NCBI GenBank assembly: GCA_963830385.1
Contig: CAWHMD010000013.1
Location: 20,626 to 84,625 of the forward strand
Origin: an uncultured Actinomycetes bacterium
Lineage (GTDB): Bacteria > Actinomycetota > Actinomycetes > Streptosporangiales > Streptosporangiaceae
Reading direction: 5' to 3'
DNA: 64,000 nt
This document shows, piece by piece, positions 11,537 to 47,620 of this stretch. The notes below the pieces were generated by a model. It did no database searches. It was not told the DNA's origin and saw nothing but the letters and a program-made list of their open reading frames with translations. Both the position numbers and the translations under genes were made by a program. How positions within the stretch are numbered: the stretch's first letter is position 1; each line of letters starts with the position of its first letter.

Positions 11537-11849
11537 CCCCTCATGGTGCCATCGAAGCGCTGTCCCAGGTCAGCAATTGCCGAGTGTCCCGATCGCGGAG
11601 GCGAGGCCTCTGGTCTGGGCCGGGACTCCTGGCTAAGGTAGTTGCTTGTTTGAAACCAAATAAATGAAGGAATGAGGTACCCGGTAAGGGGGCATACGTT
11701 CCAGTAACCAGCGCCCGGCGCGGGCCAATCCAGATCGCGGGCGGGCGCGCCCAGGGGTTGGCAAGGACTGCGGCCGGCAGTCATCCTTACTCCAAGGCTC
11801 CACCCGGGGCCACCGAACGTGCGGCGCGGTTCCCGCAAGGACGCGGACA

Positions 11850-16132: not shown

Positions 16133-16180
16133 CGTCCCCTCCCGGCTCAGTCGTAACGGGCCGCCCGGCCTTGCCGACGG

Positions 16181-19000: not shown

Positions 19001-19083
19001 TGGGCGAGGAGGGATTTGAACCCTCACGTCCTTTCGGACACACGGACCTGAACCGTGCGCGTCTGCCGTTCCGCCACCCGCCC
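19001..19083 (-). tRNA. tRNA-Leu (anticodon CAG), class II with long variable arm
   Basis: Reverse strand reads GGGCGGGUGGCGGAACGGCAGACGCGCACGGUUCAGGUCCGUGUGUCCGAAAGGACGUGAGGGUUCAAAUCCCUCCUCGCCCA. It has a 7-bp acceptor stem (one G-U), anticodon loop UUCAGGU and T-loop GGUUCAAAUCC. CCA is not encoded. Same position as leuT next to fhaA in M. tuberculosis. Confidence 0.9.
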
Positions 19084-19168
19084 GGGCGCGGAAAGAAGGT
19101 TAGCACGACCCCGAGTGCACTCAGGCCCCGGATACGATCAGAGGCGAGTTGCGAAGGGAGGTGCCACG

Positions 19169-19927: not shown

Positions 19928-19954
19928 CCCGTCAGGCAGGGACCTCTCACTGGA

Positions 19955-20443
19955 ATGACCGAGCTCACCCTCACCCTTATCCGGGTGGCCTTTCTCGCCG
20001 TGCTCTGGCTGTTTGTCATCGCGGCGATCGGAGTCGTCCGCACGGACCTCTCCGGCAATTCCAGTGGCCGGTCACGGCTGGCCCGGCGGCAGGCGACCGC
20101 GCCGCGGCCGATGCCCAGGCCCAACGGCAAGCCGCAGCGGTCCCGTCGCGGACAGTTGCATACGCTCGTCGTAACCGGCGGCGCGCTCAAGGGAACGACC
20201 ATTGATCTCAACGAGCAGCAAATTACGCTCGGCCGGTCAAATGACGCTACGCTCGTCCTCAACGACGACTACGCTTCAAGCCACCACGCCCGGATTTTCC
20301 CGCAGGACGGGCAGTGGATCGTTGAAGATCTCGGTTCAACCAACGGCACGTACCTGGATCGCCAGAAAGTGACGCGACCTACTCCGGTGCCGGCGGGCGT
20401 GCCGGTCCGTATCGGCAAGACCGTTCTGGAACTTCGCAGATGA
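19955..20443 (+). CDS. fhaB: FhaB/FipA (membrane FHA domain protein)
   Basis: N-terminal TM helix, then the FHA motif ITLGRSNDATLVLNDDYASSHHARI...GSTNGTYLD. Stop overlaps the pstP start. Confidence 0.85.
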   Translation: MTELTLTLIRVAFLAVLWLFVIAAIGVVRTDLSGNSSGRSRLARRQATAPRPMPRPNGKPQRSRRGQLHTLVVTGGALKGTTIDLNEQQITLGRSNDATLVLNDDYASSHHARIFPQDGQWIVEDLGSTNGTYLDRQKVTRPTPVPAGVPVRIGKTVLELRR

Positions 20444-21993: not shown

Positions 21994-23435
21994 GCAGCGT
22001 CGCGACGTCGGACAACAATCCGACGCTCGGCGGCGTTCCTGACACTCCGGTAGCGAGGCCGCGGGGACGCCGCACGACCGAGCTGCTGATGCTGGTGTTC
22101 TCGGTCGTGCTGGTCGCGTTCGCCTACGTGAACGTCGGGCTGGGGCTCAAGGGCACGGTGCCGCCCGGGATCATCGAATACATCATCGGCTTCACGGTGC
22201 TGCTGGCCATCGCCCACATCGTGGTGCGCTGGCTGGCCCCGTACGCCGATCCGCTGCTGCTGCCGCTGGCCGCCACCCTGAACGGCCTGGGCATCGTGAT
22301 GATCTACCGGCTGCAGGAGTCCGGCCGCAACGGCAACCCGGGCCAGACCATCAGCACGCTGAGCTCGAACGCCACCGTCCTGCAGGTCTTCTACTCGGCC
22401 GTCGGGATCGGCTGTTTCGTGGCGGTGCTGGTGCTGTTCCGCGAGCCGCGGGTGCTGCAGCGCTACACCTACCTGTTCGGCCTGGTCGGCATCCTCCTGC
22501 TGGCACTGCCGGCGCTGCTGCCCGCCAGCATCAGCGAGGTGCAGGGGGCCAAGATCCAGGTCCGGCTGGGCAGCTTCTCCCTGCAGCCGGAGGAGTTCGC
22601 CAAGCTCGCCCTGGCGGTCTCGTTCGCCGGTTACCTGGTGGCCAAGCGGGACGTGCTGTCGCTGGCCGGCCTGCGGGTGCTGGGCATCGACCTGCCCCGC
22701 GCCCGCGACCTCGGCCCGGTGCTGGGCGTGTGGGGCGTGAGCCTGCTGCTGCTGGTCTTCGAGAGCGACATCGGCACCTCGGCCCTGTTCATGGGCCTGT
22801 TCGTGGCCATGCTGTACATCGCCACCCAGCGCACGTCGTGGCTGCTGATCGGTTTCCTGCTGTTCATCGGGGGCGCGTTCGCCGCCAGCAAGCTGTTCAG
22901 CCACGTGGGTGAGCGGTTCCAGATCTGGCTGCACCCGTTCTCCGGCGGCAACCCCTACGGGAACGCCTACCAGCTGGTCCAGGGCCTGTACGGGATGGCT
23001 TCGGGCGGGATCCTGGGCAAGGGCCTGGGGGCCGGCCAGCCATACCTGACCCCGCTGGTCCAGAGCGACTTCATCACCACCGCGTTCGGCGAGGAGATCG
23101 GGCTGACCGGGCTGATGGCGATCCTGCTGCTGTATGGCCTGATCGTGCAGCGCGGGCTGGCCACCTCGCTCGCGGTCAAGGACCCGTTCGCCAAGATCCT
23201 GGCCGGCGGCCTGGCGTTCATGCTGGCCCTGCAGGTGTTCGTGATCGTCGGCGGGGTCACCCGGCTGATCCCGCTGACCGGTATCACCACCCCGTTCCTG
23301 GCCCAGGGAGGCTCCTCACTGCTCGGCAGCTGGATGCTGATCGCGCTGCTGATGCGGCTGAGTGACACGGCCCGGCGGCCACCGCCGCAGCCGATCCAGG
23401 ATGAGGGCATGACCCAGGTGGTGAACCTGCCGTGA
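21990..23435 (+). CDS. rodA: SEDS glycosyltransferase RodA (FtsW/RodA/SpoVE family)
   Basis: Polytopic protein with the QPEEFAKLALAV and TDFITTAFGEEIGLTG motifs. Coupled to pstP and pbpA. Confidence 0.9.
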   Translation: MSSVATSDNNPTLGGVPDTPVARPRGRRTTELLMLVFSVVLVAFAYVNVGLGLKGTVPPGIIEYIIGFTVLLAIAHIVVRWLAPYADPLLLPLAATLNGLGIVMIYRLQESGRNGNPGQTISTLSSNATVLQVFYSAVGIGCFVAVLVLFREPRVLQRYTYLFGLVGILLLALPALLPASISEVQGAKIQVRLGSFSLQPEEFAKLALAVSFAGYLVAKRDVLSLAGLRVLGIDLPRARDLGPVLGVWGVSLLLLVFESDIGTSALFMGLFVAMLYIATQRTSWLLIGFLLFIGGAFAASKLFSHVGERFQIWLHPFSGGNPYGNAYQLVQGLYGMASGGILGKGLGAGQPYLTPLVQSDFITTAFGEEIGLTGLMAILLLYGLIVQRGLATSLAVKDPFAKILAGGLAFMLALQVFVIVGGVTRLIPLTGITTPFLAQGGSSLLGSWMLIALLMRLSDTARRPPPQPIQDEGMTQVVNLP

Positions 23436-24901
23436 ACCGAGCGGTACGCCGGATCTCCATCGCCGCCCTGATCATGTTCGTCCTGCTGCTGGCCAACATC
23501 AACTACCTGCAGGGCTTCGAGGCGAGCGCGCTGAGCAGCAAACCCGGGAACTCCCGGGCGTTCGCCGCGCAGTTCCAGTACCAGCGGGGCGAGATCGTGA
23601 CCTCCGACGGCGTGGTCGTCGCCCGGTCCAAGGCGGTCGGCGGCATCTACAAGTACCAGCGGGTCTATCCCTCCGGGCAGGAGTATTCGCCGGTCACCGG
23701 CTACGACGCGCTCTACGGCGCGAGCGGCGTCGAGAAGACCGAGAACTCAGTGCTGAGCGGCAACTCCTCTTCGCTGGCCGTGCGCAACGTGATCGACATG
23801 ATCACCAACAAGCCCCGCAAGGGCGCGACGGTCCAGCTCACGATCAACTCCAAGGCCCAGAACGCGGCCTGGAGCGCGCTGCAGTCCGGCGGCAAGTCCG
23901 GCGCGGTGGTGGCCATGGACCCCTCCACCGGCAAGATCCTGGCCATGGCGTCGTACCCGTCGTACGACCCGAACCAGCTGGCGGTGCTGGACGGCACCCA
24001 GCTCAACAACAACGACAAGGCGCTGCTGAACGACAAGAACCAGCCGCTGCTGAACCGGGCGACCAGCGCGACCTACCCGCCCGGGTCGACGTTCAAGATC
24101 GTCACCAGCTCCAGCCTATTCAGCCAGGGCAAGGGCTCGCCGAGCTCGGTGGTGGACGCGCCGACCAGCTTCACCCTGCCGCAGAGCAGCACCAAGCTGA
24201 TCAACAACAACGGCGAGGCGTGCGGCTCGATGGGCAACGGCAAGGCCACCATCGACGTCGCGTTCACCGAGTCGTGCAACACCGCGTTCGCCAACATCGG
24301 CATGCAGCTCGGGTCGGCCGCGTTGAAGAGCGAGGCCGAGAAGTACGGCTTCAACAACCCGAACCTGACCATCCCCACCTCGGTCGTGCCCAGCAACTTC
24401 CCGCTGGAGCCGGCGCTGTCCTTCACCGCCATGTCCGCCATCGGCCAGAAGGACGACACGGTCACCCCGCTGCAGGAGGCCATGATGTCGGCCGCGATCG
24501 CCAACGGCGGCAAGCTGATGCGGCCCTACCTGGTCCAGCAGGTCCAGGCGGCCGACCTCAGCATCGTCGACTCGGCGTCGCCTCAGGTGCTGAGCCAGCC
24601 GGTCAGCTCGAGCGTGGCCGGCCAGATCAAGACGATGATGCTGCACGTGGTCAGCCAGCCGGACGGCACGGCCGCCGCGTTCAACAACGCGATCCCCGGG
24701 GTGCAGATCGCCGGCAAGACCGGCACCGCCCAGAACGGGGTCAACAACAGTGGCCTGAACGATGCGGTTTTCACCTGTTTCGCCAGTAACGGCAACCGTT
24801 CCATGGCGGTGGGCGTCATCATTCAGGGCGGCGGTTACGGCGCTGCGGCGGCTGCCCCCATTGCCGTCAGTGTCCTCAAGGCTTACCTGGAGAACGGGTG
24901 A
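23432..24901 (+). CDS. pbpA: Class B penicillin-binding protein PbpA
   Basis: Transpeptidase motifs STFK (PPGSTFKIV), SxN (ESCNTAF) and KTGT (AGKTGTAQ). Confidence 0.9.
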   Translation: MNRAVRRISIAALIMFVLLLANINYLQGFEASALSSKPGNSRAFAAQFQYQRGEIVTSDGVVVARSKAVGGIYKYQRVYPSGQEYSPVTGYDALYGASGVEKTENSVLSGNSSSLAVRNVIDMITNKPRKGATVQLTINSKAQNAAWSALQSGGKSGAVVAMDPSTGKILAMASYPSYDPNQLAVLDGTQLNNNDKALLNDKNQPLLNRATSATYPPGSTFKIVTSSSLFSQGKGSPSSVVDAPTSFTLPQSSTKLINNNGEACGSMGNGKATIDVAFTESCNTAFANIGMQLGSAALKSEAEKYGFNNPNLTIPTSVVPSNFPLEPALSFTAMSAIGQKDDTVTPLQEAMMSAAIANGGKLMRPYLVQQVQAADLSIVDSASPQVLSQPVSSSVAGQIKTMMLHVVSQPDGTAAAFNNAIPGVQIAGKTGTAQNGVNNSGLNDAVFTCFASNGNRSMAVGVIIQGGGYGAAAAAPIAVSVLKAYLENG

Positions 24902-26424
24902 ACGATCACCTGCTGGGCGGACGTTATCGGCTGAGCAGCCGGATAGCGGTCGGCGGCATGGGCGAAGTGTGGCGTGGCACCGACGAGCTGCTGGACCGCG
25001 CGGTGGCCGTCAAGCTGCTGTCGGCGGCGCACGCCACCGACGAGGCGTTCCGGGCCCGGTTCCGGGCCGAGGCCCGCTACGCGGCTTCGCTGTCTCACCC
25101 GAACATTGCCCAGGTCTTCGACTACGGCGAGATGTCGGGTCCCGACGAGGCCCCGCCCGGCCTGCCGTCCGGTGGCGCCTATCTGATCATGGAGCTGGTT
25201 CAGGGCGAGCCGCTGTCGGCGGTGATCGCGCGGCAGGAGCGGCTGTCGGCCGGCGACACCCTGCGCATCGTGAGCCAGGCGGCCGACGCGCTGGCGGCCG
25301 CGCACGAGGCCGGCATCGTCCACCGCGACATCAAGCCCGGGAACCTGCTGGTCACCAGCGACGGCACCACGAAAATCACCGACTTCGGCATCGCCCGCGC
25401 AATGTGGGCCGCGCAGGCGTCCCATCTGACCCAGACCGGCATGGTCATGGGTACCGCCAGCTACGTTTCCCCGGAGCAGGCCACCGGCGGGACGATCACG
25501 TCCGCCTCGGACATCTACTCGCTCGGGGTCGTCGCTTACGAGTGCCTGACCGGTGAACCGCCGTTCACGGCCGAGACCCCGGTCGCGATCGCGGTCGCGC
25601 ACATGCACCGGCCGGTACCGCCGCTGCCGGACGACGTGCCCGCGCCGGTGGCCGATCTGGTCACGAACATGCTGGCCAAGCGGCCGGAGGACCGGCCGCA
25701 GACGGCCCACTGGGTGGCGGACCGGGCCCGGCAGCTGCGCAGCTCGCTGCCCAGCACCCCGGACCTGCCGGCCGACATGGACGTGGCCGGGCTGACCGAG
25801 ACCGCGGCCGTCGGCGCCGCGGCCTTCGCGGCGGCCGGGCAGGCGACCGACCCGCGCGACGCCGGGGCCGCTCTGACCCGGAACGACATGGGCCGCCCGG
25901 GCGCGGCCACCCCGCCGCCCCGGCCCCCCGCCCACACCGCGGGCCACAGCCGAGGCGGCAGCGGCCGCCGCCGGCGCGCCCTGATGGCCGCGGGCGTGAG
26001 CGTGGTGGTGGCCGCCATCGGCGGCACGGTGGCGGCGTTCATGCTGGCCGGGAGGCCGATGAACCAGGTCGGCAACGTGAGCCCGGCCAGTTCCGCGACG
26101 CCCGGCACGAGCGCGAGCCCCACGACCACGACGATCAGCCCGACACCCACGCCGAGCCGGGAAAACGGCGTCGGCTACCGGAGTACGCCTACTCTAGGGG
26201 TGGGCGCCGGGGCGGGCGGCAGGATCAGCCCGTCCTCGGTGATCTCGCCGACGAAAGTTAAATCGACAAAAACTAAGAAGAGTTCTCCTCCACCGACGAC
26301 GAAGCCGCCGGTCACGCCGACGACTCAGCCGCCGACAACAACGCCGCCGACAACAACGCCGCCGACGCAGGGCAACGGCGGTGGCGGTAACGGCCACGGC
26401 CCCGGGCCAAATGGGAAGACCTAG
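24898..26424 (+). CDS. pknA: Ser/Thr protein kinase PknA with TM and Thr/Pro-rich extracellular tail
   Basis: GGMGEVWRG, VAVKLL, HRDIKPGNLL, DFGIAR, SPEQA. TM ALMAAGVSVVVAAIGGTVAAF. The tail includes a 15-bp tandem repeat (gccgccgacaacaac, 26328-26366) encoding PPTTT repeats. Confidence 0.85.
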   Translation: MNDHLLGGRYRLSSRIAVGGMGEVWRGTDELLDRAVAVKLLSAAHATDEAFRARFRAEARYAASLSHPNIAQVFDYGEMSGPDEAPPGLPSGGAYLIMELVQGEPLSAVIARQERLSAGDTLRIVSQAADALAAAHEAGIVHRDIKPGNLLVTSDGTTKITDFGIARAMWAAQASHLTQTGMVMGTASYVSPEQATGGTITSASDIYSLGVVAYECLTGEPPFTAETPVAIAVAHMHRPVPPLPDDVPAPVADLVTNMLAKRPEDRPQTAHWVADRARQLRSSLPSTPDLPADMDVAGLTETAAVGAAAFAAAGQATDPRDAGAALTRNDMGRPGAATPPPRPPAHTAGHSRGGSGRRRRALMAAGVSVVVAAIGGTVAAFMLAGRPMNQVGNVSPASSATPGTSASPTTTTISPTPTPSRENGVGYRSTPTLGVGAGAGGRISPSSVISPTKVKSTKTKKSSPPPTTKPPVTPTTQPPTTTPPTTTPPTQGNGGGGNGHGPGPNGKT

Positions 26425-26471
26425 CCCTGACCAGGGGCCAGTGATGAGACAACGCGGGATGGTTTGGCAAA

Positions 26472-28316
<1,845 letters not shown>

Positions 28317-28367
28317 CGATCACGAGAACGGCTAGCGGCCGCCGGAACGGCTGGCGGCCGCCGGCCG

Positions 28368-28526
28368 TCAGCCGTTGATGGCGCTGCCGTCGACCGGTAC
28401 GTGCAGCTGCAGCCAGGGGAAAACGCCGAACCACAGCGCCGCCGCGGCCAGCAGCAGGAGCAGCACCATCCAGGCCGTCCTGATCCCGGGACGTCCCGGG
28501 AGTGACCGCCAGAGCCATCCGTACAC
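28368..28526 (-). CDS. Possible 52-aa single-TM small protein
   Basis: Below the track cutoff. Own translation: VYGWLWRSLPGRPGIRTAWMVLLLLLAAAALWFGVFPWLQLHVPVDGSAING, preceded by GGAGACGGAC. Lies upstream of the sortase gene on the same strand. Confidence 0.35.
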   Translation of the reverse strand: MYGWLWRSLPGRPGIRTAWMVLLLLLAAAALWFGVFPWLQLHVPVDGSAING

Positions 28527-28564
28527 GTCCGTCTCCTAACTGTGCCTGCTGATAACTGTGTCTG

Positions 28565-29215
28565 CTAACCGCGGGCCGCGGCCGAGACCAGCTGACCGGT
28601 CACGATCACCCGGTGCGTGCCGGTCCAGGCCGGGTTGCAGGTGATCAGCGTGATCAGCCGCTGCGTGGGGCGCTGGCCGGGGTCCCCGGGGACCGGGTCG
28701 ACCACCGCCGTGTCGGTCGGCAGCACGGTGTGCTGGCCGGTCACCCGGTAGGTGTAGGTGTTGAGCTTGGTGTCGATGTAGACGAGGTCGCCGGCCTTCA
28801 GCGACGGCAGGCTCCAGAAGGGGTTGCCGGCCGTGACCCGGTGCCCGGCCACGGCGAAGTTGCCGAGCTGGCCCGGGAGCTGGGTGCCCGGCACGTGCCC
28901 GGGGCTCACGTTCAGCTGGGCCAGCGCGGTGCCCTGGATGATGGTGAACCGCCAGTGCGGGCCGAAGGCCGGGATCCGGATGTAGGCGAACGGCTGCCCG
29001 GTGACCAGCGCCAGCTGTTCGGGCCGGGCTGTCCGGGCCGCGTGGCCGCCACCGGCCGCGACGCTGGCCCACTGCTGGTTCAGCTCGTTGCTGAGCTGGT
29101 GCTGGGCGCTGCTGGCGTGCAGCGCGGTGCCCCACATCAGGTACGCGACGAAGAGCAGGACGACGGCGCCCAGGGTGACCAGAAGCTCACCCAGGCCGCG
29201 GATGACGGTACGCAC
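28565..29215 (-). CDS. Class E sortase
   Basis: N-terminal TM anchor, HRVTAGNPF (catalytic His region), TLITCNP (catalytic Cys), and a late Arg. Confidence 0.8.
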   Translation of the reverse strand: MRTVIRGLGELLVTLGAVVLLFVAYLMWGTALHASSAQHQLSNELNQQWASVAAGGGHAARTARPEQLALVTGQPFAYIRIPAFGPHWRFTIIQGTALAQLNVSPGHVPGTQLPGQLGNFAVAGHRVTAGNPFWSLPSLKAGDLVYIDTKLNTYTYRVTGQHTVLPTDTAVVDPVPGDPGQRPTQRLITLITCNPAWTGTHRVIVTGQLVSAAARG

Positions 29216-29374
29216 GATTGACCCATATCGCTGAGGTGGTTTTACCGGGATGATTACTGAACGTCATTGAATATTAGCGGCTCGTGACGACATGCGCCGC
29301 CGGAACATCCGGGCCCGGCTCTGAGACTCAGGTACTACGATGACGCCACAGCCAAACAGACCAGGAGAATCACG

Positions 29375-29623
29375 GTGCCGAAGTCCCGCGTCCGCAAGAA
29401 GCCGGTGTACACGCCGCCGCCACGGTCGGTGCGGCGTAAGGTCAGCCCGCCGTGGCTGGCCCCGGTCATGGTGGCGTGCCTGGTGGTCGGCCTGATCTGG
29501 ATCGCCTTGTACTACATCACCAACGGGCAGCTGGCCGGGATGTCGGTGCTGAGCTACTGGAACATGGTGATCGGGTTCGTGCTGATCATCGCCGGAGTGG
29601 TGCTCGCCACCCAGTGGCGTTAG
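29375..29623 (+). CDS. crgA: Cell division protein CrgA
   Basis: MPKSRVRKKPVYTPPP...SPPWLAPVMVACLVVGLIWIALYY plus a second TM. AGGAG-N7-GTG start. Conserved position. Confidence 0.9.
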   Translation: MPKSRVRKKPVYTPPPRSVRRKVSPPWLAPVMVACLVVGLIWIALYYITNGQLAGMSVLSYWNMVIGFVLIIAGVVLATQWR

Positions 29624-29659
29624 GGCGCGTCCGGGCGCGCCTGACCGGCCGGCGGCCGG

Positions 29660-30628
29660 TCAGAAGGCCGGCAGGCCGAGATGGACGCTCCACAGCGCGG
29701 TAGCGGCGATCAGCGCGGCCAGCACGCCGACGGTGGCCGCGGCCTGGATCAGGACGCGGTTGGCGCGGGGGGCGTAGGCGTAGGCGGCCGTGATCAGCGC
29801 CCCGACGACCAGGCCACCGATGTGGTCCTGCCAGGCGATGCCGTGCACCACGAAGCCGATGAACAGGTTGAGGGCGATCAGCCCGATGATGCCGCGGCTG
29901 TCCACCCGCAGCTTGCGGGACACCACGAACCAGGCGCCGAACAGGCCGAACACCGCGCCGGAGGCACCCAGCGCGGCCTGGTTGGGTGGGACCAGGTAAT
30001 AGAGGAAGACCCCGCCGCCGATCGCGCTGAGCAGGTAGATGGCCAGGAAGCGGAGGCGGCCGAACAGGTGCTCGAGCTGCGGCCCGACCACGATCAGCGC
30101 CCACATGTTGAACAGGATGTCGGCGAAACCGAAGGTGCCCCCCGACGGGGCCACGAACGCCGAGGTGAGCAGGCGGTACCACTGGCCCGCGCCCACCCCG
30201 ACCGCGTTGCCGCGGCCGTCGGTGGCGTACCCGACCATCTCCAGGTTGGTGGCGACGCTCGGGCGGACCAGCACGACCAGGTAGAGCAGGACGTTGAGGC
30301 CGACCAGCGACCAGGTGACGGCGGCCCCCGTCGTCACCCGGCCGCCGAACGCGGTCCTCGGCTGCCGCACCGGCGGGCCCGCCTCGGGGCTGCGGCCCCG
30401 GATGCAGTCGACACACTGCTGGCCGACCGGGGCGGACCGCAGGCAGTCCGGGCAGGCGGGACGCCCGCAGCGCGAGCAGGAAACGTACGTCTCCCGGCCC
30501 GGGTGCCGGAAACAGGTCGGCACGCCGGACGACGCGGCTGCGCCCTCGTCCGGCGGCCCAGCCGCGGACCCGGTGCCGGGTCCGATCTCAGGCCCTGTGT
30601 CCGGCGATCCGGAGGCGGGAGTGGTCAC
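29660..30628 (-). CDS. Rhomboid family intramembrane serine protease with N-terminal zinc ribbon
   Basis: CFRHPGRETYVSCSRCGRPACPDC...CVDC (Cys4-type ribbon). Rhomboid GASGAVFGLFGA and a late His in GFVVHGIAWQDHIGG. Confidence 0.85.
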   Translation of the reverse strand: MTTPASGSPDTGPEIGPGTGSAAGPPDEGAAASSGVPTCFRHPGRETYVSCSRCGRPACPDCLRSAPVGQQCVDCIRGRSPEAGPPVRQPRTAFGGRVTTGAAVTWSLVGLNVLLYLVVLVRPSVATNLEMVGYATDGRGNAVGVGAGQWYRLLTSAFVAPSGGTFGFADILFNMWALIVVGPQLEHLFGRLRFLAIYLLSAIGGGVFLYYLVPPNQAALGASGAVFGLFGAWFVVSRKLRVDSRGIIGLIALNLFIGFVVHGIAWQDHIGGLVVGALITAAYAYAPRANRVLIQAAATVGVLAALIAATALWSVHLGLPAF

Positions 30629-30635
30629 GGTGGCC

Positions 30636-31160
30636 TCAGGCGTCGCCGCGGTCGATGGTCACCGACTCGAGCACCACGTCCTGGCTGGGCCGGTCCCGCC
30701 GGTCGGTGCTGGTCTGGCTGATGCGCTGCACGAGGTCGGCGCCCTCGACGACCTCGCCGAAGATGGTGTGCTTGCCGGTCAGCCAGGGCGTCGGCGCGAC
30801 CGTGATGAAGAACTGCGAGCCGTTGGTCCCCGGGCCGGCGTTCGCCATGGCCAGCAGGTACGGGCGGGTGAAGGCCAGGTCCGGGTGGATCTCGTCCTTG
30901 AACTTGTAACCCGGGCCGCCGGTACCGGTGCCGAGCGGGTCACCGCCCTGGATCATGAAGTCGGGAATCACCCGGTGGAAGATGGTCCCGTTGTAGAGCG
31001 GCTCGCTGGTCTCCGCCCCGCTGCCGGGGTCGGTCCACTTCCGGCTGCCCTCGGCCAGCTCGACGAAGTTGCGCACGGTCTCCGGGGCCTGGTCCGGGAA
31101 CAGCCGGACCTTGATCGGGCCCTGGTTGGTGGTGAGCGTTGCGGTAAGCGTATTGGTCAT
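30636..31160 (-). CDS. ppiA: Cyclophilin-type peptidyl-prolyl isomerase
   Basis: MTNTLTATLTTNQGPIKVRLFPDQAPETVRNF...FHRVIPDFMIQGGDP...MANAGPGTNGSQFFI. The track N-terminal extension is rejected. Confidence 0.9.
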   Translation of the reverse strand: MTNTLTATLTTNQGPIKVRLFPDQAPETVRNFVELAEGSRKWTDPGSGAETSEPLYNGTIFHRVIPDFMIQGGDPLGTGTGGPGYKFKDEIHPDLAFTRPYLLAMANAGPGTNGSQFFITVAPTPWLTGKHTIFGEVVEGADLVQRISQTSTDRRDRPSQDVVLESVTIDRGDA

Positions 31161-37622: not shown

Positions 37623-38471
37623 ATGGCAACCGACCGGCCCGCCCGTGCCGACGAGGCAACCGCCCCCGCCGACCGTGGCGTGGTTCGGCCGGACGCCCCG
37701 CCGGACGAACCGCCGGACGAACCGCGCAGCCGCGCCGAGCTCTACGCCGCCAGGCGCGGCACGGACACCCCGCCAGCCTCCAATGACACTCACACCACCG
37801 CCGACGGCGGCTGGGCCTGGAAAGGCCTCCGCCTCGATCCCCCCGCCAACCACGTCGCCGACCAGCAACTGGCCGCCCGCCGCGACGCCGAGGGCCGCCA
37901 CCCCGACGGCAGCTACGACGACCGGGGCCTGACCCCCGCCCTCCGCCGCGTCGAAGCCCAGCTCGAGCACGGCACGCTCGCCCCGGACACGGAGAAATTC
38001 GCCCTGAAATCCCCCGACCGCTTCAAAGAAAAGCTCGCCAAGATGATGGGGACAGAACCCGACCGCCCGGCCGCTGATCTGGCCGCCGACATTCACGACG
38101 GTATACGGTATACATGCATTCTTGATTTCGAGCATTACAGCTCCGAGGTTGACCAGGCACGGCGATTGCTCAGGATCGATGGCTACCAACTCATCGCCTT
38201 CAAGCCGAACTGGTCGGGCCACGAGTACAAGGGCATCAACAGCCAGTGGCGAGACCCCGCCAGTGGCGAGTATTTCGAGGTCCAGTTCCACACCCAGGAA
38301 AGCTGGGAAGCCAAGCAGCAAACCCACGACGCATACGAGAAAATCGAGTCTCCCCAGACCTCGCCGACCGATCGCACCCGTCTCCGTGAATATCAGCGAC
38401 ACATCTGCACACAGATTCCGATCCCAACCGCTGCCCTCGATTTCCATCCATTGAAAGAACGGGAAAAATAA
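37623..38471 (+). CDS. RelA/SpoT-homologue (small alarmone synthetase / toxSAS-like) nucleotidyltransferase with disordered N-terminus
   Basis: Motifs appear in canonical order. FALKSPDRFKEKLAKM (38001-38036; compare xKSxxSxxxKLxR). DIHDGIRYTC (38097-; compare DxxGxRxx). EYKGINSQW (38226-; compare YRSLH). FEVQFHTQESWEAKQQTHDAYEK (38274-38342; compare EIQIRTxxxxxWAxxxHxxxYK). Third-position G/C bias supports the plus strand over the antisense 470-aa ORF. Confidence 0.65.
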   Translation: MATDRPARADEATAPADRGVVRPDAPPDEPPDEPRSRAELYAARRGTDTPPASNDTHTTADGGWAWKGLRLDPPANHVADQQLAARRDAEGRHPDGSYDDRGLTPALRRVEAQLEHGTLAPDTEKFALKSPDRFKEKLAKMMGTEPDRPAADLAADIHDGIRYTCILDFEHYSSEVDQARRLLRIDGYQLIAFKPNWSGHEYKGINSQWRDPASGEYFEVQFHTQESWEAKQQTHDAYEKIESPQTSPTDRTRLREYQRHICTQIPIPTAALDFHPLKEREK

Positions 38472-38725
38472 GTGGCCGAGCAGATCATCTACTACGCAAT
38501 CGTCGGTACCGGCCGGACGGCGGCGGACCCTTCCGGGCTGGTTCGCCGCCGTACCACTGCTGAGGGAGCAGTGGACGAATCGTTCACGCGAGACGGCTCT
38601 TGGCAATTCACGAACGCGATCTATCAGGCGAACGCGGCGAGAATTTCGGGCCTGACCTGATTGAGATCAGCGCTGATGAGGCGGCCGCGCTGGTTGAGCG
38701 GTTCCGGCAGCGGTGGGCTGAGTAG
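38472..38725 (+). CDS. Small ORF immediately after the RSH-like gene, apparently split by a -1 frameshift near 38630-38642 (candidate antitoxin/immunity)
   Basis: GTG 38472 abuts TAA 38469-38471. Frame 0 gives MAEQIIYYAIVGTGRTAADPSGLVRRRTTAEGAVDESFTRDGSWQFTNAIYQANAA and then stops at 38658-38660. The overlapping frame continues GENFGPDLIEISADEAAALVERFRQRWAE to TAG 38723-38725, 2 nt before the ATPase ATG. Confidence 0.4.
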
Positions 38726-38727
38726 CG

Positions 38728-41556
38728 ATGGTCTCGCCCTGGCGGCGGTTGTGCGGGCTGGAGACATTCCAGATTGCGGAGGTTCCCCGGCCGGACGAGA
38801 GCGAGAACGGGGCTACCCGGGACCCGGGACGTGCACAGCGGGCGGCGGCCCTGGTGGCGGCCTATCACGCCGGGGAGGCGCTGGCGTTCGGGTGGCTGCG
38901 GGAACGGGCCGGCGACACGGTGCGGGTGCTGGCGGCGGGGGCGGCGCTGGTGGGCACGGCCGACGGGAACGAGGTGGTGCTGGCGATGCCGGGCGGGGCC
39001 CGGGGACGGGTACTGGGGCGTGGCACGGCGGCGACAACGATGGCCGGGCTGGCCTGCTGGCGGGCGATCGGCGGGATCAGCGACGGCTTAGTGGTGGCCG
39101 CGAACGGTGACCAGGCGGACCGGGAACGGGCCGCCCCCTCCCTGGAGGAGTGCCTGCTGCCGGCTTGGGGCGGGCCGTTCGGATGGCTCGCGCTGGCCGA
39201 ACCGGTGGCGCCCGCTGAACTACAGCGCCTGGCCGACGACGAGGCGCGACGTGAGCGGCTGGCTGCCCGGATGGCGGACCGCTTCCCCGAGCAGGACGTG
39301 CAGGCCCGGCGGCACCGGGACCGGCACGCCGAGTTGCGCCAGGGCCTGTCCACCGGCCTGTGGCGGGTGCATCTGCTGGCGGGCGGCGCCGATCCGGCCG
39401 CCGCGGCCCGGATCGCGGGGCTGGTGTGCGCCTCGGCCGACCTGCGAGGGCTGCCGTACTCGCTGACACCAGCAGTTACGAGGGCGAGCGGGCTGCGGGG
39501 GCTGCTCGATTCGGCGCCACCTCTGGCCCCGGCCGAGCCGGCCGAATCGGCGGATGACCTGGCCGAGCTGTACGAGGACGTGGCGCCGCGGACGCCGTTC
39601 CACGCCAGCACCACGCTGCTGGCGACGCTGGCCCGGACGCCGGACCGCGAGATCCCCGGCCTCCGGCTCACGCTCCGGCCGGACTTCGACGTGACCCCGG
39701 AGCAGGACCACCCAGCGGCCAGCATCCCGCTCGGTCAGGTGCTGGACCGGCAGCGGATGGCCGCGGGGCCGCTCCGGATCCCGCTGGACTCGCTGAACCG
39801 GCACGTTTTCGTGTGCGGGGCGACCGGCGGCGGCAAGTCGCAGACCGTGCGCGGCCTGCTCGAGGCGGCCAGCCGGGCCGGGGTGCCGTGGCTGGTGGTG
39901 GAGCCCGCCAAGGCCGAATACCGGCTGATGGCCGCCCGGCTGGCCGGGTCGGGCGCCGAGGTGGTGCGGATCCGGCCGGGCGAGGCCGACGCGGTGGCGG
40001 CCGGGCTCAACCCGCTCGAGCCCGCCACCGACGGCCACGGACGGCGGTTCCCGCTGCAGACCCACGCGGACCTGGTCCGGGCGCTGTTCCTGGCCGCCTT
40101 CCAGTCCGAGGAACCGTTCCCGCAGGTGCTCAGCGCCGCACTGTCCCGGGTGTACGAAGAGGCCGGGTGGGACCTGGCACTGGGCGAACCGCTCACGCCG
40201 GGCCTGCGCCCCGGCTATCCGGGGCTGGCCGACCTGCAGCGCACGGCCGAACAGGTGGTGCGGGGCATCGGCTACGGCCCGGAGCTGAGCGCCGACGTCC
40301 TCGGGTTCATCAAGGTGCGGCTGGCCAGCCTGCGGCTGGGCACCACCGGCCGGTTCCTGGACGGCGGGCACCCGATCGATTTTGGGCGGCTGCTGCGCCG
40401 CAACGTGGTGCTGGAGATCGAGGACGTCGGGGACGACCGCGACAAGGCCTTCCTGATGGGCACGGTGCTGTTGCGGCTGGTGGAACATTTGAGGCTGATG
40501 GGGCCAGTGAGAGCTGAGCGCGGCCTGCGTCACCTGACCGTGTTCGAGGAGGCCCACCGGCTGCTGCGGCGTCCCGAGCCAGGCGGTGGTGGTGCCGCCG
40601 CGCACGCGGTCGAGCTGTTCGCCGGGCTGCTGGCCGAGGTCCGCGCCTACGGCGAGGGGATCATCATCGCCGAGCAGATCCCCGGCCGCCTCGTCCAAGA
40701 CGTCATCAAGAACACAGCGGTGAAGATCGTGCACCGGCTGCCCGCGGCCGATGATCGCGAGGCGGTCGGCGCGACCATGAACCTCAGCCCGGCCCAGTCG
40801 CGCTTCCTGGTCACGCTGGTCCCGGGGGAGGCGGCGGTGGCGGCCGACGGGATGGACCACCCGCTGCTGGCCCGGATGCCGGACGGCACCGCCCGCGAGG
40901 CCGCCACCGCCCGCGGGGCCGTCGCCTCCGCGCCGAACGGCCCGGCACCAGCCGGGACCGCCAGCCCGGCCACGGTGTCCGCGGTCCGCAGCGTCACCTG
41001 CGGTACCGAATGCGTGGCCAGTCCGTGCACGCTGCGCGACATGCGGGCAGGCCAGCGCGCCGCCGAACGCTACCCGGCGGTCGCCCTGTGGACAGAACTG
41101 TCCGTGCTCGCGCACCTGACCGGCTGGCCGATGCCGATCCCGGGGGCCACCCTGCTCGGCCTGCTGCGCGAGTGGCCGGCCCGGCGGCGCGACTGTGCGC
41201 TGTCGCACGCGGTGGACGCCGCCGTCGCGGCCCGGACCCCGCTGATCTGCGCCCGGGTGAGCGGGCCGGCGCTGGCGGCGCACGTGGCGACGGCGGTGCG
41301 GGTACGGGTGACCCAGGGGATGTGGCTGTGCCCCGAGCGGGAGCCGCGGTGGCTGGCGCCCGGGTGGGAGGACGACGAGGGGGAGCCGGACACCGAGGCG
41401 TTGCGCCCGCTCGCGTTCGGGCTGGCCGATCCTTCGGCGGTGGAGCGGGCCGTCGGGACCAGCGTTACCGCCGCCGATTTCGGGTCACGGCTGGCCGGGT
41501 ACCTGGATCGGGAGTTCACCGACTGCCGGTGGCCGCTCCGCTATCTGAAGACGTGA
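38728..41556 (+). CDS. HerA/FtsK-superfamily P-loop ATPase (DUF87/AAA_10-like core) with unassigned N-terminal domain of about 350 aa and C-terminal domain of about 220 aa
   Basis: Walker A VFVCGATGGGKSQTV (39817-39840) followed by LVVEPAKAEY. Walker B LTVFEEAHRLL (40540-40557). VRAYGEGIIIAEQIPGRL...NTAVKIVHRLPAADD matches the HerA/VirB4 pattern. C-terminal Cys cluster CGTECVASPC. Confidence 0.75.
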   Translation: MVSPWRRLCGLETFQIAEVPRPDESENGATRDPGRAQRAAALVAAYHAGEALAFGWLRERAGDTVRVLAAGAALVGTADGNEVVLAMPGGARGRVLGRGTAATTMAGLACWRAIGGISDGLVVAANGDQADRERAAPSLEECLLPAWGGPFGWLALAEPVAPAELQRLADDEARRERLAARMADRFPEQDVQARRHRDRHAELRQGLSTGLWRVHLLAGGADPAAAARIAGLVCASADLRGLPYSLTPAVTRASGLRGLLDSAPPLAPAEPAESADDLAELYEDVAPRTPFHASTTLLATLARTPDREIPGLRLTLRPDFDVTPEQDHPAASIPLGQVLDRQRMAAGPLRIPLDSLNRHVFVCGATGGGKSQTVRGLLEAASRAGVPWLVVEPAKAEYRLMAARLAGSGAEVVRIRPGEADAVAAGLNPLEPATDGHGRRFPLQTHADLVRALFLAAFQSEEPFPQVLSAALSRVYEEAGWDLALGEPLTPGLRPGYPGLADLQRTAEQVVRGIGYGPELSADVLGFIKVRLASLRLGTTGRFLDGGHPIDFGRLLRRNVVLEIEDVGDDRDKAFLMGTVLLRLVEHLRLMGPVRAERGLRHLTVFEEAHRLLRRPEPGGGGAAAHAVELFAGLLAEVRAYGEGIIIAEQIPGRLVQDVIKNTAVKIVHRLPAADDREAVGATMNLSPAQSRFLVTLVPGEAAVAADGMDHPLLARMPDGTAREAATARGAVASAPNGPAPAGTASPATVSAVRSVTCGTECVASPCTLRDMRAGQRAAERYPAVALWTELSVLAHLTGWPMPIPGATLLGLLREWPARRRDCALSHAVDAAVAARTPLICARVSGPALAAHVATAVRVRVTQGMWLCPEREPRWLAPGWEDDEGEPDTEALRPLAFGLADPSAVERAVGTSVTAADFGSRLAGYLDREFTDCRWPLRYLKT

Positions 41557-41561
41557 GCGGC

Positions 41562-41864
41562 TCAGGCCGCGTTGGCCCGGCGCATCCGGCGACGCCGCTC
41601 AGACGAGCGCTGTTCCTCGTTCAGGCCGCCCCAGGTGCCGTACTTCTCCGGGCGGGACAGCGCGTAGTTCAGGCAGTCGATCCGCACCGGGCAGTCGGCA
41701 CAGATGGCCTTGGCCTTGCGCTCGCGGATGTCGCGCTCGGGCTGGCGCTCACCATCTGGCCCGAAGAAGATATTCAGATCCTCGTTGCGGCACGCGCCCT
41801 CGTCCTGCCAGCTCCAATTGGGCCGGGGAAGCGCAGCCGCCGAGGACCGCCGAACGTTGGACAT
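41562..41864 (-). CDS. WhiB-like (Wbl) Fe-S transcriptional regulator
   Basis: WQDEGACRNEDLNIFFGP...AKAICADCPVRIDCLNYAL...GTWGGLNEEQR has four Cys plus the GxWGG turn and a basic tail. Convergent with the ATPase gene (5-nt gap). Confidence 0.85.
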   Translation of the reverse strand: MSNVRRSSAAALPRPNWSWQDEGACRNEDLNIFFGPDGERQPERDIRERKAKAICADCPVRIDCLNYALSRPEKYGTWGGLNEEQRSSERRRRMRRANAA

Positions 41865-42011
41865 GGAAACGATCACCTCAACCGGTATTACCAAAGTTAC
41901 GTATGCGTCTAGGGCCCCGTTGGCGGGCGGAGGTCCGTTCTGGTGCGGTGCCCGCCGTACGCAAGTGCAACGCCAAGAATGCCCTGGACGTTCCCGTTCG
42001 CGTGCGGGAAA

Positions 42012-42125: not shown

Positions 42126-43409
42126 GTGACAGCCCGCATGATCAATACCCCGCAACGGGCGGCCACGCGACAGAACTCGCATCTTACGCACAGAGCGAAC
42201 ACGGACGCAGGCCGGCACGGCTGGCTCCGGCTGACGCCCGCGTACTCGGTCCGGCTGGTCCGCGAGCGGACCGGTCACCTGCCGCCCGGCGCGATCGTCA
42301 CCGACCCGTTCTCCGGCAGCGGGACCACGGTGCTGGCCGCCGCCGAGCACGGCGGCGTGGGCCAGGCGATCGACGTCAACCCGTTCCTGGTCTGGCTGGG
42401 CAACGCCAAGGCGGCCGCCTATCCGCCCGCGCTGCTGGACGAGGGCCAGGTCCTGGCCTCGTGGCTGGCCGAGCAGGCCGCCCACCACGCCCGCGACGCG
42501 GCCGGGCTGTGGGCCCCGAACCTGCACAACATCGACCGCTGGTGGTCACCGGGGTCGCTGGCCGGGCTGAAGGCCCTGCGCCACGCGCTGGACCAGGCGG
42601 AGCTGCCCGGCCCAGTCCACGACCTGTTCAGCATCGCGTTCTGCCGCACCGCGATCGGCGTGAGCAACGCGGCCTTCAACCACCAGAGCATGTCGTTCGC
42701 GGCCGGCCGTGACGCCGCGCTCGACGGTGAACCGTCCAGCGGCGACCACGTTTTCGCCCGGTTCAGCGCCGAAACGGCCGGGATCCTGGCCAGCGCCCGT
42801 ACCCGGCTGCCGGGGCGGGGCCGGGTGGTGCTGGGCGACGCCCGCGACCTCGGGACGGCCGGGCTGCCGGGCTGTGACCTGCTGCTCACCTCGCCGCCGT
42901 ACGTGAACCGGATGTCCTACATCCGTGAGCTGCGGCCGTACATGTACTGGCTGCGGTTCCTGGACCAGGCCTGCGACGCCGGCGAGCTGGACTGGACGGC
43001 GATCGGCGGCACCTGGGGCATCGCCACCTCGCGGCTGCACGACTGGGCGCCCGCCGATCTCCGGACGGCCGGCCCCACCGCTCCCATCGGCGACGAGCTG
43101 CGCGCGGTCACCGCGCTGATCGCCCGCGACGGCGGCAAGCACGGGCCGCTGCTGGCCACCTACGTGACCAAGTACTTCCACGACATGGCGGTCCACTTCA
43201 CCGCGGCGTTCGAGCACGTCAGGAGCGGCGGGACGGCGAGCTACATCATCGGCAACTCGACGTTCTACGGCCACGTCGTGCCGGCCGAGCGCTGGTACGC
43301 CCAGCTGCTGAGCGCGGCCGGCTTCGCCAGCGTGCAGACCACCGTCCTCCGCAAGCGCAACAGCAACCTCGCCCTGTACGAGTACGAGGTCACCGCGCTC
43401 CGTCCGTGA
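42126..43409 (+). CDS. Orphan DNA methyltransferase, amino-MTase (N6-A or N4-C), alpha-type motif order
   Basis: Motif I VTDPFSGSGTTVLAAAEHG near the N-terminus. Catalytic motif IV LLLTSPPYVNR lies about 190 aa later. No endonuclease gene recognised nearby. Confidence 0.8.
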   Translation: MTARMINTPQRAATRQNSHLTHRANTDAGRHGWLRLTPAYSVRLVRERTGHLPPGAIVTDPFSGSGTTVLAAAEHGGVGQAIDVNPFLVWLGNAKAAAYPPALLDEGQVLASWLAEQAAHHARDAAGLWAPNLHNIDRWWSPGSLAGLKALRHALDQAELPGPVHDLFSIAFCRTAIGVSNAAFNHQSMSFAAGRDAALDGEPSSGDHVFARFSAETAGILASARTRLPGRGRVVLGDARDLGTAGLPGCDLLLTSPPYVNRMSYIRELRPYMYWLRFLDQACDAGELDWTAIGGTWGIATSRLHDWAPADLRTAGPTAPIGDELRAVTALIARDGGKHGPLLATYVTKYFHDMAVHFTAAFEHVRSGGTASYIIGNSTFYGHVVPAERWYAQLLSAAGFASVQTTVLRKRNSNLALYEYEVTALRP

Positions 43410-46633: not shown

Positions 46634-47620
46634 ATGATCCCGTACAGGGACGTGGACCGCATGATCTCGGCCGGATCGAAGGGCGCTCGCCTGGCCAAGC
46701 GCCGGGCCAAGCGTGGGCGGCAGGTCGGCGACCCGGGCCGCGACCGGCTCCCCCCGGAAGCGAGCATCACGCTGGCGGCCGAACGGGAGGCGACGGGGGT
46801 CGACAACGTCCTGGCCGACCTGGACCAGGAGCTGATCGGCCTGGTACCGGTCAAGGACCGGGTCCACCAGATCGCGTCACTGCTGCTGGTCGACCGGGCC
46901 CGGCGGCGGTTCGGCCTGGAGGCCCCCCGGCCGAACCTGCACATGTGCTTCACCGGAGCTCCCGGCACCGGCAAGACCACGGTGGCCCTGAAGATGGGCC
47001 GCTTGCTGCACCAGCTCGGTTATCTGGAGCAAGGCCAGCTGGTGCACGCCATGCGCAACGACCTGGTCGGCGAGTTCGTCGGCCAGACGGCCCCGCGCAC
47101 GAAGAAGGTGCTGGACATGGCCATGGGCGGCGTGCTGTTCATCGACGAGGCCTACTACCTGTACCACGGGGAGGACGCACGCGACTTCGGGCAGGAGGCC
47201 ATCGGCATCCTGCTGCAGGTCATGGAGAACGACCGCGACAAGCTGGTGGTGATCCTGGCCGGCTACAAGGACCGGATGGACGAGTTCTTCGGCTCGAACC
47301 CCGGCATGAGCTCGCGGATCGCCCACCACATCGACTTTGCCGACTACCAGCTGGACGAGCTGCTGTCGATCGGCGAGATCATGCTGCGCCAGGCCCACTA
47401 CCACCTGTCGGAAGACGCCGAGGAGATGCTCGGCCGGTACCTGAAACGGCAGATGGGCGAGCCGCGGTTCGCCAACGCCCGCAGCGTCCGCAACGATCTC
47501 GACGCGGCCCGGCTCCGGCACGCCCACCGGCTGGCCGCGGAGCCCGATCGGCTGTGGACCCGCGACGACCTGATGCGCATCGAGCCCGCCGACATCATGG
47601 GGGACGACGACCCGCTGTAG
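46634..47620 (+). CDS. CbbX/CfxQ-type AAA+ ATPase
   Basis: LIGLVPVKDRVHQIASLL..., Walker A FTGAPGTGKTTVA, Walker B GVLFIDEAYYL, then VVILAGYKDRMDEFF. No RuBisCO genes nearby. Confidence 0.8.
   Translation: MIPYRDVDRMISAGSKGARLAKRRAKRGRQVGDPGRDRLPPEASITLAAEREATGVDNVLADLDQELIGLVPVKDRVHQIASLLLVDRARRRFGLEAPRPNLHMCFTGAPGTGKTTVALKMGRLLHQLGYLEQGQLVHAMRNDLVGEFVGQTAPRTKKVLDMAMGGVLFIDEAYYLYHGEDARDFGQEAIGILLQVMENDRDKLVVILAGYKDRMDEFFGSNPGMSSRIAHHIDFADYQLDELLSIGEIMLRQAHYHLSEDAEEMLGRYLKRQMGEPRFANARSVRNDLDAARLRHAHRLAAEPDRLWTRDDLMRIEPADIMGDDDPL

Follow-up and report, generated by a model that had tools for sequence, protein, structure and literature searches.

A DUF8350 ATPase of the FtsK-HerA superfamily next to an alarmone-synthetase gene in Streptosporangiaceae: a candidate trafficking motor of a polymorphic-toxin system

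A 64,000-nucleotide stretch of DNA from an uncultured Streptosporangiaceae bacterium (GenBank assembly GCA_963830385.1, contig CAWHMD010000013.1, positions 20,626 to 84,625), referred to here as the window, encodes a 942-residue ATPase of the FtsK-HerA superfamily. It is directly preceded by a small open reading frame (ORF) and by a gene for an alarmone synthetase. The three genes and the domains of the ATPase lie at the following window positions:

37623..38471, + strand: alarmone-synthetase (SaEAS/SAS-like) toxin gene, 282 aa, putative cargo or effector (from PDB and NCBIfam matches and its leader)
38472..38725, + strand: small immunity- or antitoxin-like ORF (from DNA alignment with relatives)
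38728..41556, + strand: DUF8350/FtsK-HerA-superfamily ATPase, 942 aa, ATG start (from a mechanical ORF list)
38728..39720, + strand: N-terminal domain of the ATPase, aa 1-331 (from the AlphaFold2 model and family alignment)
39721..40884, + strand: P-loop ATPase core, aa 332-719 (from Foldseek, hhalign and invariant residues)
39817-39840, + strand: Walker A motif GATGGGKS
40534-40557, + strand: Walker B motif LTVFEEAH
40999..41553, + strand: C-terminal helical Trp-rich domain, aa 758-942 (from AlphaFold2 secondary structure and confidence)

An earlier prediction, made from the DNA alone, had described the product of this ORF as a HerA/FtsK-type ATPase with a core of the HerA/VirB4 pattern, and this was borne out. 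The ORF is real, with a clear coding signature (GC content of 0.79, 0.56 and 0.91 at the first, second and third codon positions, in a window of ~71% GC), and a string check found every quoted motif in place. In the core these are GATGGGKS at aa 364-371 (Walker A), EPAKAEY at aa 392-398, VFEEAHRLL at aa 605-613 (a Walker B-like hhhhEE motif, overlapping LTVFEEAH at aa 603-610), AEQIPGRL at aa 648-655 and VHRLPAADD at aa 668-676. The N-terminal part contains the helical segment RLADDEARRERLAARMADRF at aa 167-186 and GLWRVHLLAGGAD at aa 210-222, while CGTECVASPC occupies aa 758-767 and seven Trp residues lie beyond aa 720. The protein has a single ATPase domain and no transmembrane (TM) segment. 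The window DNA itself was found only in soil-metagenome DNA contigs.

Searches of an older Pfam release, NCBIfam and PDB sequences gave no match for aa 1-330 and 745-942, in agreement with the claim that the terminal domains resemble nothing nameable. That claim no longer holds for the newest Pfam release, in which the family is listed as PF27615 (DUF8350); precomputed Pfam annotation places this entry on the window protein and on every listed homologue. The window ATPase is therefore a member of DUF8350, a catalogued and uncharacterised family. Both terminal regions are conserved in more than 1850 full-length homologues (57-81% identity in the best local alignment), which identifies them as genuine domains and not spurious extensions. 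An exhaustive HMMER search returned 5531 clusters (50% identity) at E<=1e-3 and 2359 at E<=1e-30, mostly of 900-1050 aa with near-full-length alignment. Named sources of homologues comprise Streptosporangiaceae, Trebonia, Nonomuraea, Actinokineospora, Saccharothrix, Actinosynnema, Dactylosporangium, Pseudonocardia and Streptomyces, and a relative from Sporosarcina is 33% identical in the core (hhalign probability 100% over aa 291-718). Some members are much longer, at 1433-1439 aa (P0316 and P0273, locus L162); one of these has an MptA_B/GT87-type glycosyltransferase match in Pfam, which suggests a fusion with a neighbouring GT87-like gene or a read-through gene call.

Pfam matched the ATPase only at aa 334-422, where HerA_C (30 bits) and DUF87 (27.7 bits) both exceeded their cut-offs, and the PADLOC HerA and mad8 models covered aa 355-718. 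PDB sequence matches to HerA and VirB4 were weak and confined to the core, and NCBIfam equivalogs for CedD, HerA and VirB4-like proteins all fell far below threshold. An AlphaFold2 model of the full-length protein, built from a 73-sequence alignment, had a mean predicted local distance difference test score (pLDDT) of 76. Foldseek placed VirB4 (4ag6) at the top of its matches (E=2e-8, TM-score 0.65 on the target), followed by TrwK/VirB4 of R388 (8rtd), HerA (4d2i and 9x1m) and TrwB (1e9s), with a probability of 1.00 to VirB4, HerA and TrwB alike; archaeal HerA and the HerA subunits of the Sir2 and DUF4297 defence complexes were also among the structural matches. Walker A, the Glu-Glu pair of Walker B, R639 and Q650 are invariant in the family alignments, and the core also features HRLPAADDR. 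Together, these matches identify the core as a P-loop ATPase of the FtsK-HerA superfamily that is about equally close to VirB4/TrwK and to HerA, and its intact catalytic motifs indicate that it is apparently catalytically competent.

The likeness to VirB4/TrwK (4ag6, 8rtd and 7o42) extends beyond the best core match, since these proteins also carry a large, family-specific N-terminal domain ahead of a RecA-like ATPase and are soluble motors that dock on membrane partners. Weak matches to TrwB_AAD_bind, TraG and CD1110-family models, along with a TraD-like protein in a paralogous operon described below, could likewise point to the VirB4-like ATPase of a conjugative type IV secretion system (T4SS), or to another DNA translocase on an integrated mobile element. 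However, NCBIfam conjugative equivalogs scored only ~10-18 bits against cut-offs of 325-800, and Pfam detected no CagE_TrbE_VirB domain in the DUF8350 ATPase. Neither the window nor the homologous loci examined in detail encode a relaxase, an integrase or VirB3/6/8/10-type proteins, so the protein does not qualify as a VirB4. Unlike VirB4, it has an additional Cys-containing C-terminal domain, it has just one partner protein, from a family that lacks a Pfam model, and the genes linked to it are toxin/immunity pairs. The gene also sits at a conserved chromosomal site with no break in GC content or synteny beyond the toxin cassette, and a role in conjugation or as another mobile-element DNA translocase is very improbable.

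HerA proteins (HerA-NurA, HerA-Sir2 or Nezha, and HerA-DUF4297; 4d2i, 9x1m, 8xau, 8uae and 8ziq) share the above-threshold DUF87 and HerA_C matches and reach similar structural scores (E 1e-7 to 1e-4), and defence HerA genes likewise have an adjacent effector gene. Sequence similarity, however, does not extend beyond the P-loop region and the C-terminal portion of the core, and the protein falls well short of HerA over its full length (NF042943, 28 bits against a cut-off of 800; NF040819, 25.5 against 970; NF042944, 15.9 against 850). No NurA, Sir2 or DUF4297 gene lies nearby, and a HAS-barrel was not confirmed in the N-terminal domain, for which a domain-only model reached a pLDDT of just 44.

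That domain-only run (aa 1-332, 12-sequence alignment) was too poor for a fold search. In the full-length model, by contrast, most 10-residue blocks of aa 1-260 have a mean pLDDT of 76-96, with low values near aa 21-30 and 121-140, and the N-terminal domain is an alpha/beta structure with a long helical hairpin at aa 162-209. It contains the motifs G210-x-W212 and P305-x-x-E308-x-P-G311, in which G210, W212, P305, E308 and G311 are invariant across 40 diverse members (26-65% identity). Judged by eye, the Sporosarcina relative appears to have the same N-terminal layout with a Ser/Thr-rich insert in the hairpin; in Sporosarcina luteola this N-domain insert is ~130 aa long. The C-terminal domain follows a low-confidence linker (aa 728-756) and features a Cys cluster, C758-x3-C762-x4-C767, plus C823, which could form a metal site; C758, C762 and C823 are retained in 27-28 of the 40 diverse members. 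Profiles of the N-terminal and C-terminal domains gave nothing significant against PDB sequences. The earlier proposal that these two domains may be sensor or docking modules is plausible.

On the basis of its sequence matches, the product of the gene at 37623-38471 is homologous to SaEAS, an alarmone synthetase whose export from Streptomyces albidoflavus has been shown by experiment (PMC12691689). It has the SYNTH-like catalytic domain expected of the EAS family at aa ~127-271, where it matches PDB entry 8vx3 ('SaSAS') over 146 aligned residues (E=2.3e-22) and shares the motifs YKG[IL]N and FEVQFHT with it, and it also matches the C-terminus of the XopAD effector in NCBIfam (8e-22). Pfam searches returned no match for this 282-aa protein, and neither a signal peptide nor a TM segment was found (the latter by hydropathy). 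Its N-terminus is acidic and Pro-rich (MATDRPARADEATAPAD...PPDEPPDEP), and the GC content of the gene is below that of its surroundings.

The small ORF starts 1 nt after the synthetase stop. As read, it ends at 38660 and encodes 62 aa, a truncation that results from a 1-nt deletion near 38628: DNA alignment shows an intact 84-aa ORF in four related loci (L003, L005, L011 and L046), and a soil-metagenome contig (X4) has an extra A after 38628. The restored 84-aa frame ends with TAG at 38723-38725, 2 nt ahead of the ATPase ATG. Domain searches returned no family match for this ORF. The frameshift means either that the cassette is decaying or that the assembly is wrong at a variant junction. In the two closest soil metagenomes (X1 and X2), the contigs break at 38628-38630; one contig that covers the small ORF's 3' end together with the start of the ATPase gene runs upstream into unrelated sequence, and the X4 contig skips 232 nt within the synthetase domain (38041-38274). 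The sequence thus varies on the toxin side of this junction and stays constant on the ATPase side, as it does in polymorphic-toxin loci, which suggests that cassettes are swapped at the conserved 3' end of the small ORF, or else that a paralogous locus is present. A promoter and terminator scan found nothing above chance inside the module formed by the toxin gene, the small ORF and the ATPase gene.

Homologous loci (70 genomic, 80 metagenomic and 12 obtained by exact protein look-up; numbered with the prefix L) were then surveyed for their gene content. This revealed a full operon in the order M (516-676 aa), DUF8350 ATPase, variable protein and small ORF, where M is a partner protein discussed below. 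Full operons are present in Streptomyces clavuligerus, Actinokineospora, Saccharothrix, Dactylosporangium, two Pseudonocardiaceae metagenome-assembled genomes (L160, and L161 from Pseudonocardia sp.) and one unassigned metagenome lineage, with intergenic gaps that are mostly -11 to +10 nt (the exception is L160, with 204 and 552 nt). In S. clavuligerus, M and the ATPase are followed by an ADPrib_exo_Tox protein (2e-24) and a 134-aa ORF, with gaps of 10, -4 and -1 nt, and the operons of Saccharothrix, Dactylosporangium, Pseudonocardia and L076 are laid out in the same way. In L160 the variable protein is a Colicin_E5 tRNase (1e-29) followed by a 114-aa ORF, while Actinokineospora encodes a 497-aa protein followed by Imm49. 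One variable protein has a weak C39-like peptidase match. Toxin linkage also occurs without this full arrangement: in the orthologue group of the window protein, the ATPase gene of L018 is followed by a Zeta_toxin (9e-17) and a 100-aa ORF, and the Sporosarcina ATPase is followed by a WHH/colicin-DNase and SUKH at a locus in which no M homologue was found. The Sporosarcina luteola locus (L070, 13-12253) is a conflict island that encodes, in total, two dynamin-like GTPases, a small TM protein, the ATPase, the WHH DNase, SUKH and an AAA_5 (McrB-like) protein with its partner. The window ATPase is 49-55% identical, nearly full length, to the ATPases of L018, L160 and S. clavuligerus, all of which are toxin-cargo loci, and 44% identical to that of L161. 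The linkage to toxin/immunity pairs is therefore recurrent and independent of lineage, as is the linkage to M within the full operons.

M lacks a Pfam model, is annotated as 'hypothetical' and is widespread in Streptomyces, Amycolatopsis, Lentzea, Frankia and Nocardia. A hydropathy scan of two M-family members (L058 and L046) predicted N-terminal TM segments in both, and an aligned N-terminal hydrophobic stretch is present in most other M proteins, including those of L073 and L075, but not in that of L076. An M profile gave nothing significant against PDB sequences (E>0.3). By eye, the M motifs GGTxxGWS, hhhhAGAD and RLGNxxDA align with Walker A, Walker B and HRLPAADD of the ATPase, and hhalign produced a collinear alignment of 261 columns over the P-loop and Walker B regions (E=0.26, probability 0.2%); neither alignment A1 nor the Sporosarcina ATPase matched M. 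M may thus be a degenerate relative of the ATPase fold, a relationship that is not established. Separately, NCBIfam model NF033849 ('ser_rich_anae_1', 1163 positions) matches the ATPase core (aa 438-680 to model positions 842-1099, E=3e-5) and a different part of M (aa 519-617 to positions 268-370, E=1e-3). These weak matches hint at fused M-like and ATPase modules in some anaerobes, and may reflect Ser-rich composition.

The variable proteins share a layout in which a short start motif and a long, acidic, Pro-rich disordered stretch precede the globular toxin domain. An M-[STAG]-x-D start is present in 8 of 10 independent cargo proteins, compared with 8 of 657 other proteins encoded at the same loci (Fisher p=6e-13), and the first 60 residues of the cargo are poor in hydrophobic residues and consist of 15-30% Asp+Glu, versus 9 +/- 5% for the background. 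Examples include MSTDRETISPPPES (the S. clavuligerus ADP-ribosyltransferase), MSTDTPSETVQE (colicin E5) and MGVDRHPDPSDD (Zeta), as well as MSVDTSEGGPPP, MSADRNRPAEQPEP, MGIDAPPPPPEP and VSADAGITTADAIPPPP. The window synthetase begins MATDRP..., a start that is kept in L003, L005 and L007. Within the window the signature is convincing only in the synthetase; an ORF at 17345 (+ strand) also passed the filter and is likely to be a spurious internal start. As it bears both the M-[STAG]-x-D start and the acidic leader, the synthetase is tied to the same system as the toxins of the full operons. This shared leader and the recurrent toxin linkage support the earlier suggestion that the neighbouring RSH-like gene encodes a functionally linked effector and is no bystander. 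The leader could act as a trafficking signal that the ATPase recognises.

These loci display the hallmarks of polymorphic toxin systems as defined by Zhang et al. 2012 (PMC3482391). The toxins next to homologous ATPases are variable (ADPrib_exo_Tox, Colicin_E5, Zeta_toxin, WHH/colicin-DNase and a SaEAS-like synthetase), they are accompanied by immunity genes (SUKH and Imm49, elsewhere small overlapping ORFs of no known family and, in the window, the frameshifted 84-aa ORF as a putative immunity gene), and they share an N-terminal region in the form of the M-[STAG]-x-D start and acidic, Pro-rich leader. We consider it somewhat better than an even bet that the DUF8350 ATPase is the constant trafficking component of such a system, found mainly in Actinobacteria, and not a HerA phage-defence module. 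Judging from its gene neighbourhoods, its most likely task is to handle or export antibacterial toxins, in this case the alarmone synthetase encoded directly upstream. We propose that the ATPase would form a ring, as its relatives do, and would recognise the N-terminal toxin signal, probably via its family-specific N- or C-terminal domain. ATP would then drive transfer of the toxin to, or its threading through, a membrane complex built by M (516-676 aa). Once exported, the toxin would attack competitors, and the small ORF downstream of it would protect the producer. In the window, this module would comprise the toxin gene (37623-38471), the frameshifted immunity-like ORF (38472-38725) and the ATPase gene (38728-41556).

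The original prediction had instead placed the protein among HerA defence systems. On that account, the ring would sense infection and release or activate a toxin within the producer, leading to abortive infection, and the small ORF would be an antitoxin. The PADLOC HerA and mad8 matches to the core and the solved HerA-Sir2 and HerA-DUF4297 complexes among the structural matches are compatible with this, as are conflict-island settings of homologous loci (Cas3/Cas2; STAND NB-ARC/TPR; TerY/PRTase; and the dynamin-like GTPases and McrBC-like pair of Sporosarcina), and, as PMC12691689 notes, alarmone-synthetase toxins also occur in toxin-antitoxin modules and phages. However, the DUF8350-linked effectors differ from those of defence HerA proteins in having interchangeable C-terminal toxin domains, dedicated SUKH/Imm49 immunity genes and long disordered leaders that share a start motif; a partner for which TM segments are predicted is also encoded in the same operon. 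Due to these immunity genes, shared leaders and co-operonic partner, toxin trafficking fits better than abortive infection. In addition, NCBIfam equivalogs for anti-phage HerA score only 16-28 bits against cut-offs of 800-850, and in Streptosporangiales the gene occupies a conserved core-genome position. The HerA anti-phage framing is therefore unsupported, and we regard abortive infection as an unlikely function.

The same conserved position is the basis for another explanation, in which the ATPase is a housekeeping or developmental motor of Streptosporangiales, for example in the envelope or in division, and a toxin cassette has landed beside it with no direct link in the window. Orthologues occur at conserved places, near an ALO oxidase, OtsA, GT87 or the PPIase-rhomboid-crgA-pknB cluster (ppiA-rhomboid-crgA-pknB-pbpA-rodA). 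A metagenome scan with a diverse alignment, which recovered near orthologues only (49-77% identity), helped to count cassettes. Of 114 orthologue loci, 16 have the alarmone-synthetase cassette directly upstream of the ATPase and the other 98 (86%) lack it. Most orthologue loci have no M gene nearby, and the commonest gene directly upstream of the orthologous ATPase encodes a single-pass membrane protein of ~120-180 aa with a Pro/Tyr/Trp-rich tail (YDPWDWRTYP...RYGYPxGYEPYP), a possible membrane anchor. This protein, which is not encoded in the window, occurs at L009 (4043-4414), L010 (5065-5598), L017 (5544-5912) and ~30 other loci. A paralogue group (43-46% identical; L055-L062 and L079, for example L058 1581-8853) is encoded directly upstream of the peptidoglycan amidation genes murT-gatD, in a conserved operon whose first gene encodes a 666-840-aa protein that has TM helices at its N-terminus and a degenerate, TraD-like P-loop (GSPRSGTT), followed by genes for an M-family protein of 738-856 aa and for the ATPase. 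In L079, this paralogue operon is followed by a gene for a DUF4157/eCIS_core protein.

Several observations speak against a purely housekeeping role. Where present, the cassette is immediately upstream of the ATPase at near-zero spacing, and it occurs in three different and unrelated chromosomal contexts. The leader of the window toxin is the same as that of toxins from M-ATPase operons in other orders, Zeta-toxin cargo is found downstream of the ATPase in the same orthologue group (L018), and the window protein retains 49-55% identity to the ATPases of full toxin operons. The well-characterised housekeeping family that would have countered the original prediction was not found, despite the conserved place of the Streptosporangiales orthologues near pknB/rodA/crgA. 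Overall, we judge it improbable that the ATPase serves only such a role.

Several findings do weigh against toxin trafficking as the function of the window ATPase. A conserved oriC-proximal position with housekeeping near neighbours, as seen for many orthologues, is unusual for a competition or defence module, and most orthologue loci carry no alarmone-synthetase cassette. The 64-kb window encodes neither an M homologue nor a TraD-like partner or small C0 membrane protein, so the gene for a membrane partner would need to lie elsewhere in the genome. A channel-forming component was not identified, and export is itself a conjecture from gene content. Several of the neighbouring 'toxins', and all small ORFs other than Imm49 and SUKH, feature no recognised domain, and the proposed relationship of M to the ATPase fold has no statistical support. 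Finally, as its immunity-like ORF is frameshifted, the window cassette may be decaying or misassembled.

Other genes of the window are as follows:

9665-11569, - strand: PAS-GAF histidine kinase, adjoining the DNA polymerase III alpha-type gene
12875-16180, - strand: DNA polymerase III alpha-type, 1101 aa, with PHP, DNA_pol3_alpha, finger, HHH_6 and OB domains
19052-30658: fhaA, PP2C phosphatase (pstP), rodA/ftsW, pbpA, two Ser/Thr kinases (pknA and PASTA-domain pknB), sortase and rhomboid
41562-41894, - strand: WhiB-family regulator, convergent with the ATPase gene and 5 nt past its stop
42126-43409, + strand: orphan Type II-like N6/N4 DNA methyltransferase, lacking an adjacent nuclease gene
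46634-47620, + strand: AAA ATPase, 328 aa, with weak PADLOC IetA matches (4e-6), kept in syntenic relatives

The cluster at 19052-30658 is conserved and oriC-proximal in actinobacteria and places the window near the chromosomal origin region. In locus L002, the gene syntenic to 46634-47620 has Pfam AAA and AAA_lid_6 domains. The WhiB and methyltransferase genes were rejected as partners of the ATPase and are not counted as parts of the system, since they accompany it only in its closest syntenic relatives (L002-L007, L030, L064 and L068). The methyltransferase is also relevant to the MADS defence system, whose mad8 model (PDLC04140) is the best PADLOC match to the ATPase (1.2e-15) and covers the whole core, aa 355-708. 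However, mad8 is a core-only model of 314 positions, no other mad genes lie nearby, and the methyltransferase fits a generic Type II model better than mad2 (5.5e-23 versus 6.5e-7), which leaves it outside any MADS set. MADS membership was therefore rejected.

If the ATPase does traffic toxins, one functional parallel would be type VII secretion (T7SS), where an FtsK-HerA motor, EccC/EssC (YueA-like), is a constant part of polymorphic-toxin export in Gram-positive bacteria and the WXG/LXG toxins carry a targeting region at the N-terminus, vary in their C-terminal domains and have immunity genes downstream. T7SS may pair active with degenerate ATPase modules, as could also be the case for the DUF8350 ATPase and M. 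Unlike EccC/EssC, the DUF8350 protein has one ATPase domain and no TM segment, and it does not classify with them; its cargo signal would be a short M-x-x-D start with an acidic disordered leader in place of a helical WXG/LXG domain, and no WXG100/LXG, EccB/D or MycP genes were found at loci whose genes were examined. A second parallel comes from Ahmad et al. 2025 (mBio, PMC12691689), who found that signal-peptide-less Streptomyces EAS proteins ('cluster A') adjoin 'TrwB, TrwK, TrwI'-like genes and suggested T4SS-type export. The window synthetase belongs to the same toxin family (E=2e-22) and similarly lacks a Sec signal, and its ATPase neighbour may be of the same kind as the 'TrwK' of that paper; the ATPase, the M partner and the shared leader are not characterised there.

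DUF8350 was mentioned nowhere in the literature searched, searches for HerA with polymorphic toxins and for actinobacterial toxin-secretion ATPases yielded no description of the system, and neither the ATPase nor M is described in the surveys of polymorphic-toxin and conflict systems that were consulted. ATPase-driven toxin export by FtsK-HerA relatives is a known principle from T4SS and T7SS, so any novelty would lie in a system with its own motor, partner and signal. More tentatively, and as a proposal that may well prove wrong, the DUF8350 ATPase and M could make up an undescribed pathway by which Actinobacteria export protein toxins, one that has relatives in Firmicutes and is distinct from Sec, T4SS and T7SS. 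Its substrates would be marked by the M-[STAG]-x-D start and a long polyanionic disordered leader, which a ring resembling a DNA pump might thread in a way similar to that in which its relatives handle nucleic acid.

Many actinobacterial toxins lack a recognisable secretion signal, among them the signal-peptide-less alarmone synthetases noted in 2025. If the ATPase and M are a delivery route for such proteins, this would give a role to M and to the ATPase's very large orphan family of 5531 clusters, and would describe a compact four-gene system in which a HerA/VirB4-like motor handles protein rather than DNA. It would also provide a simple rule, an M-x-x-D start plus an acidic leader, for finding antibacterial toxins and their immunity genes in Streptomyces and its relatives. 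Even if export proves to be wrong, the strong, lineage-independent link between this ATPase, toxins and immunity genes is a concrete and testable lead.

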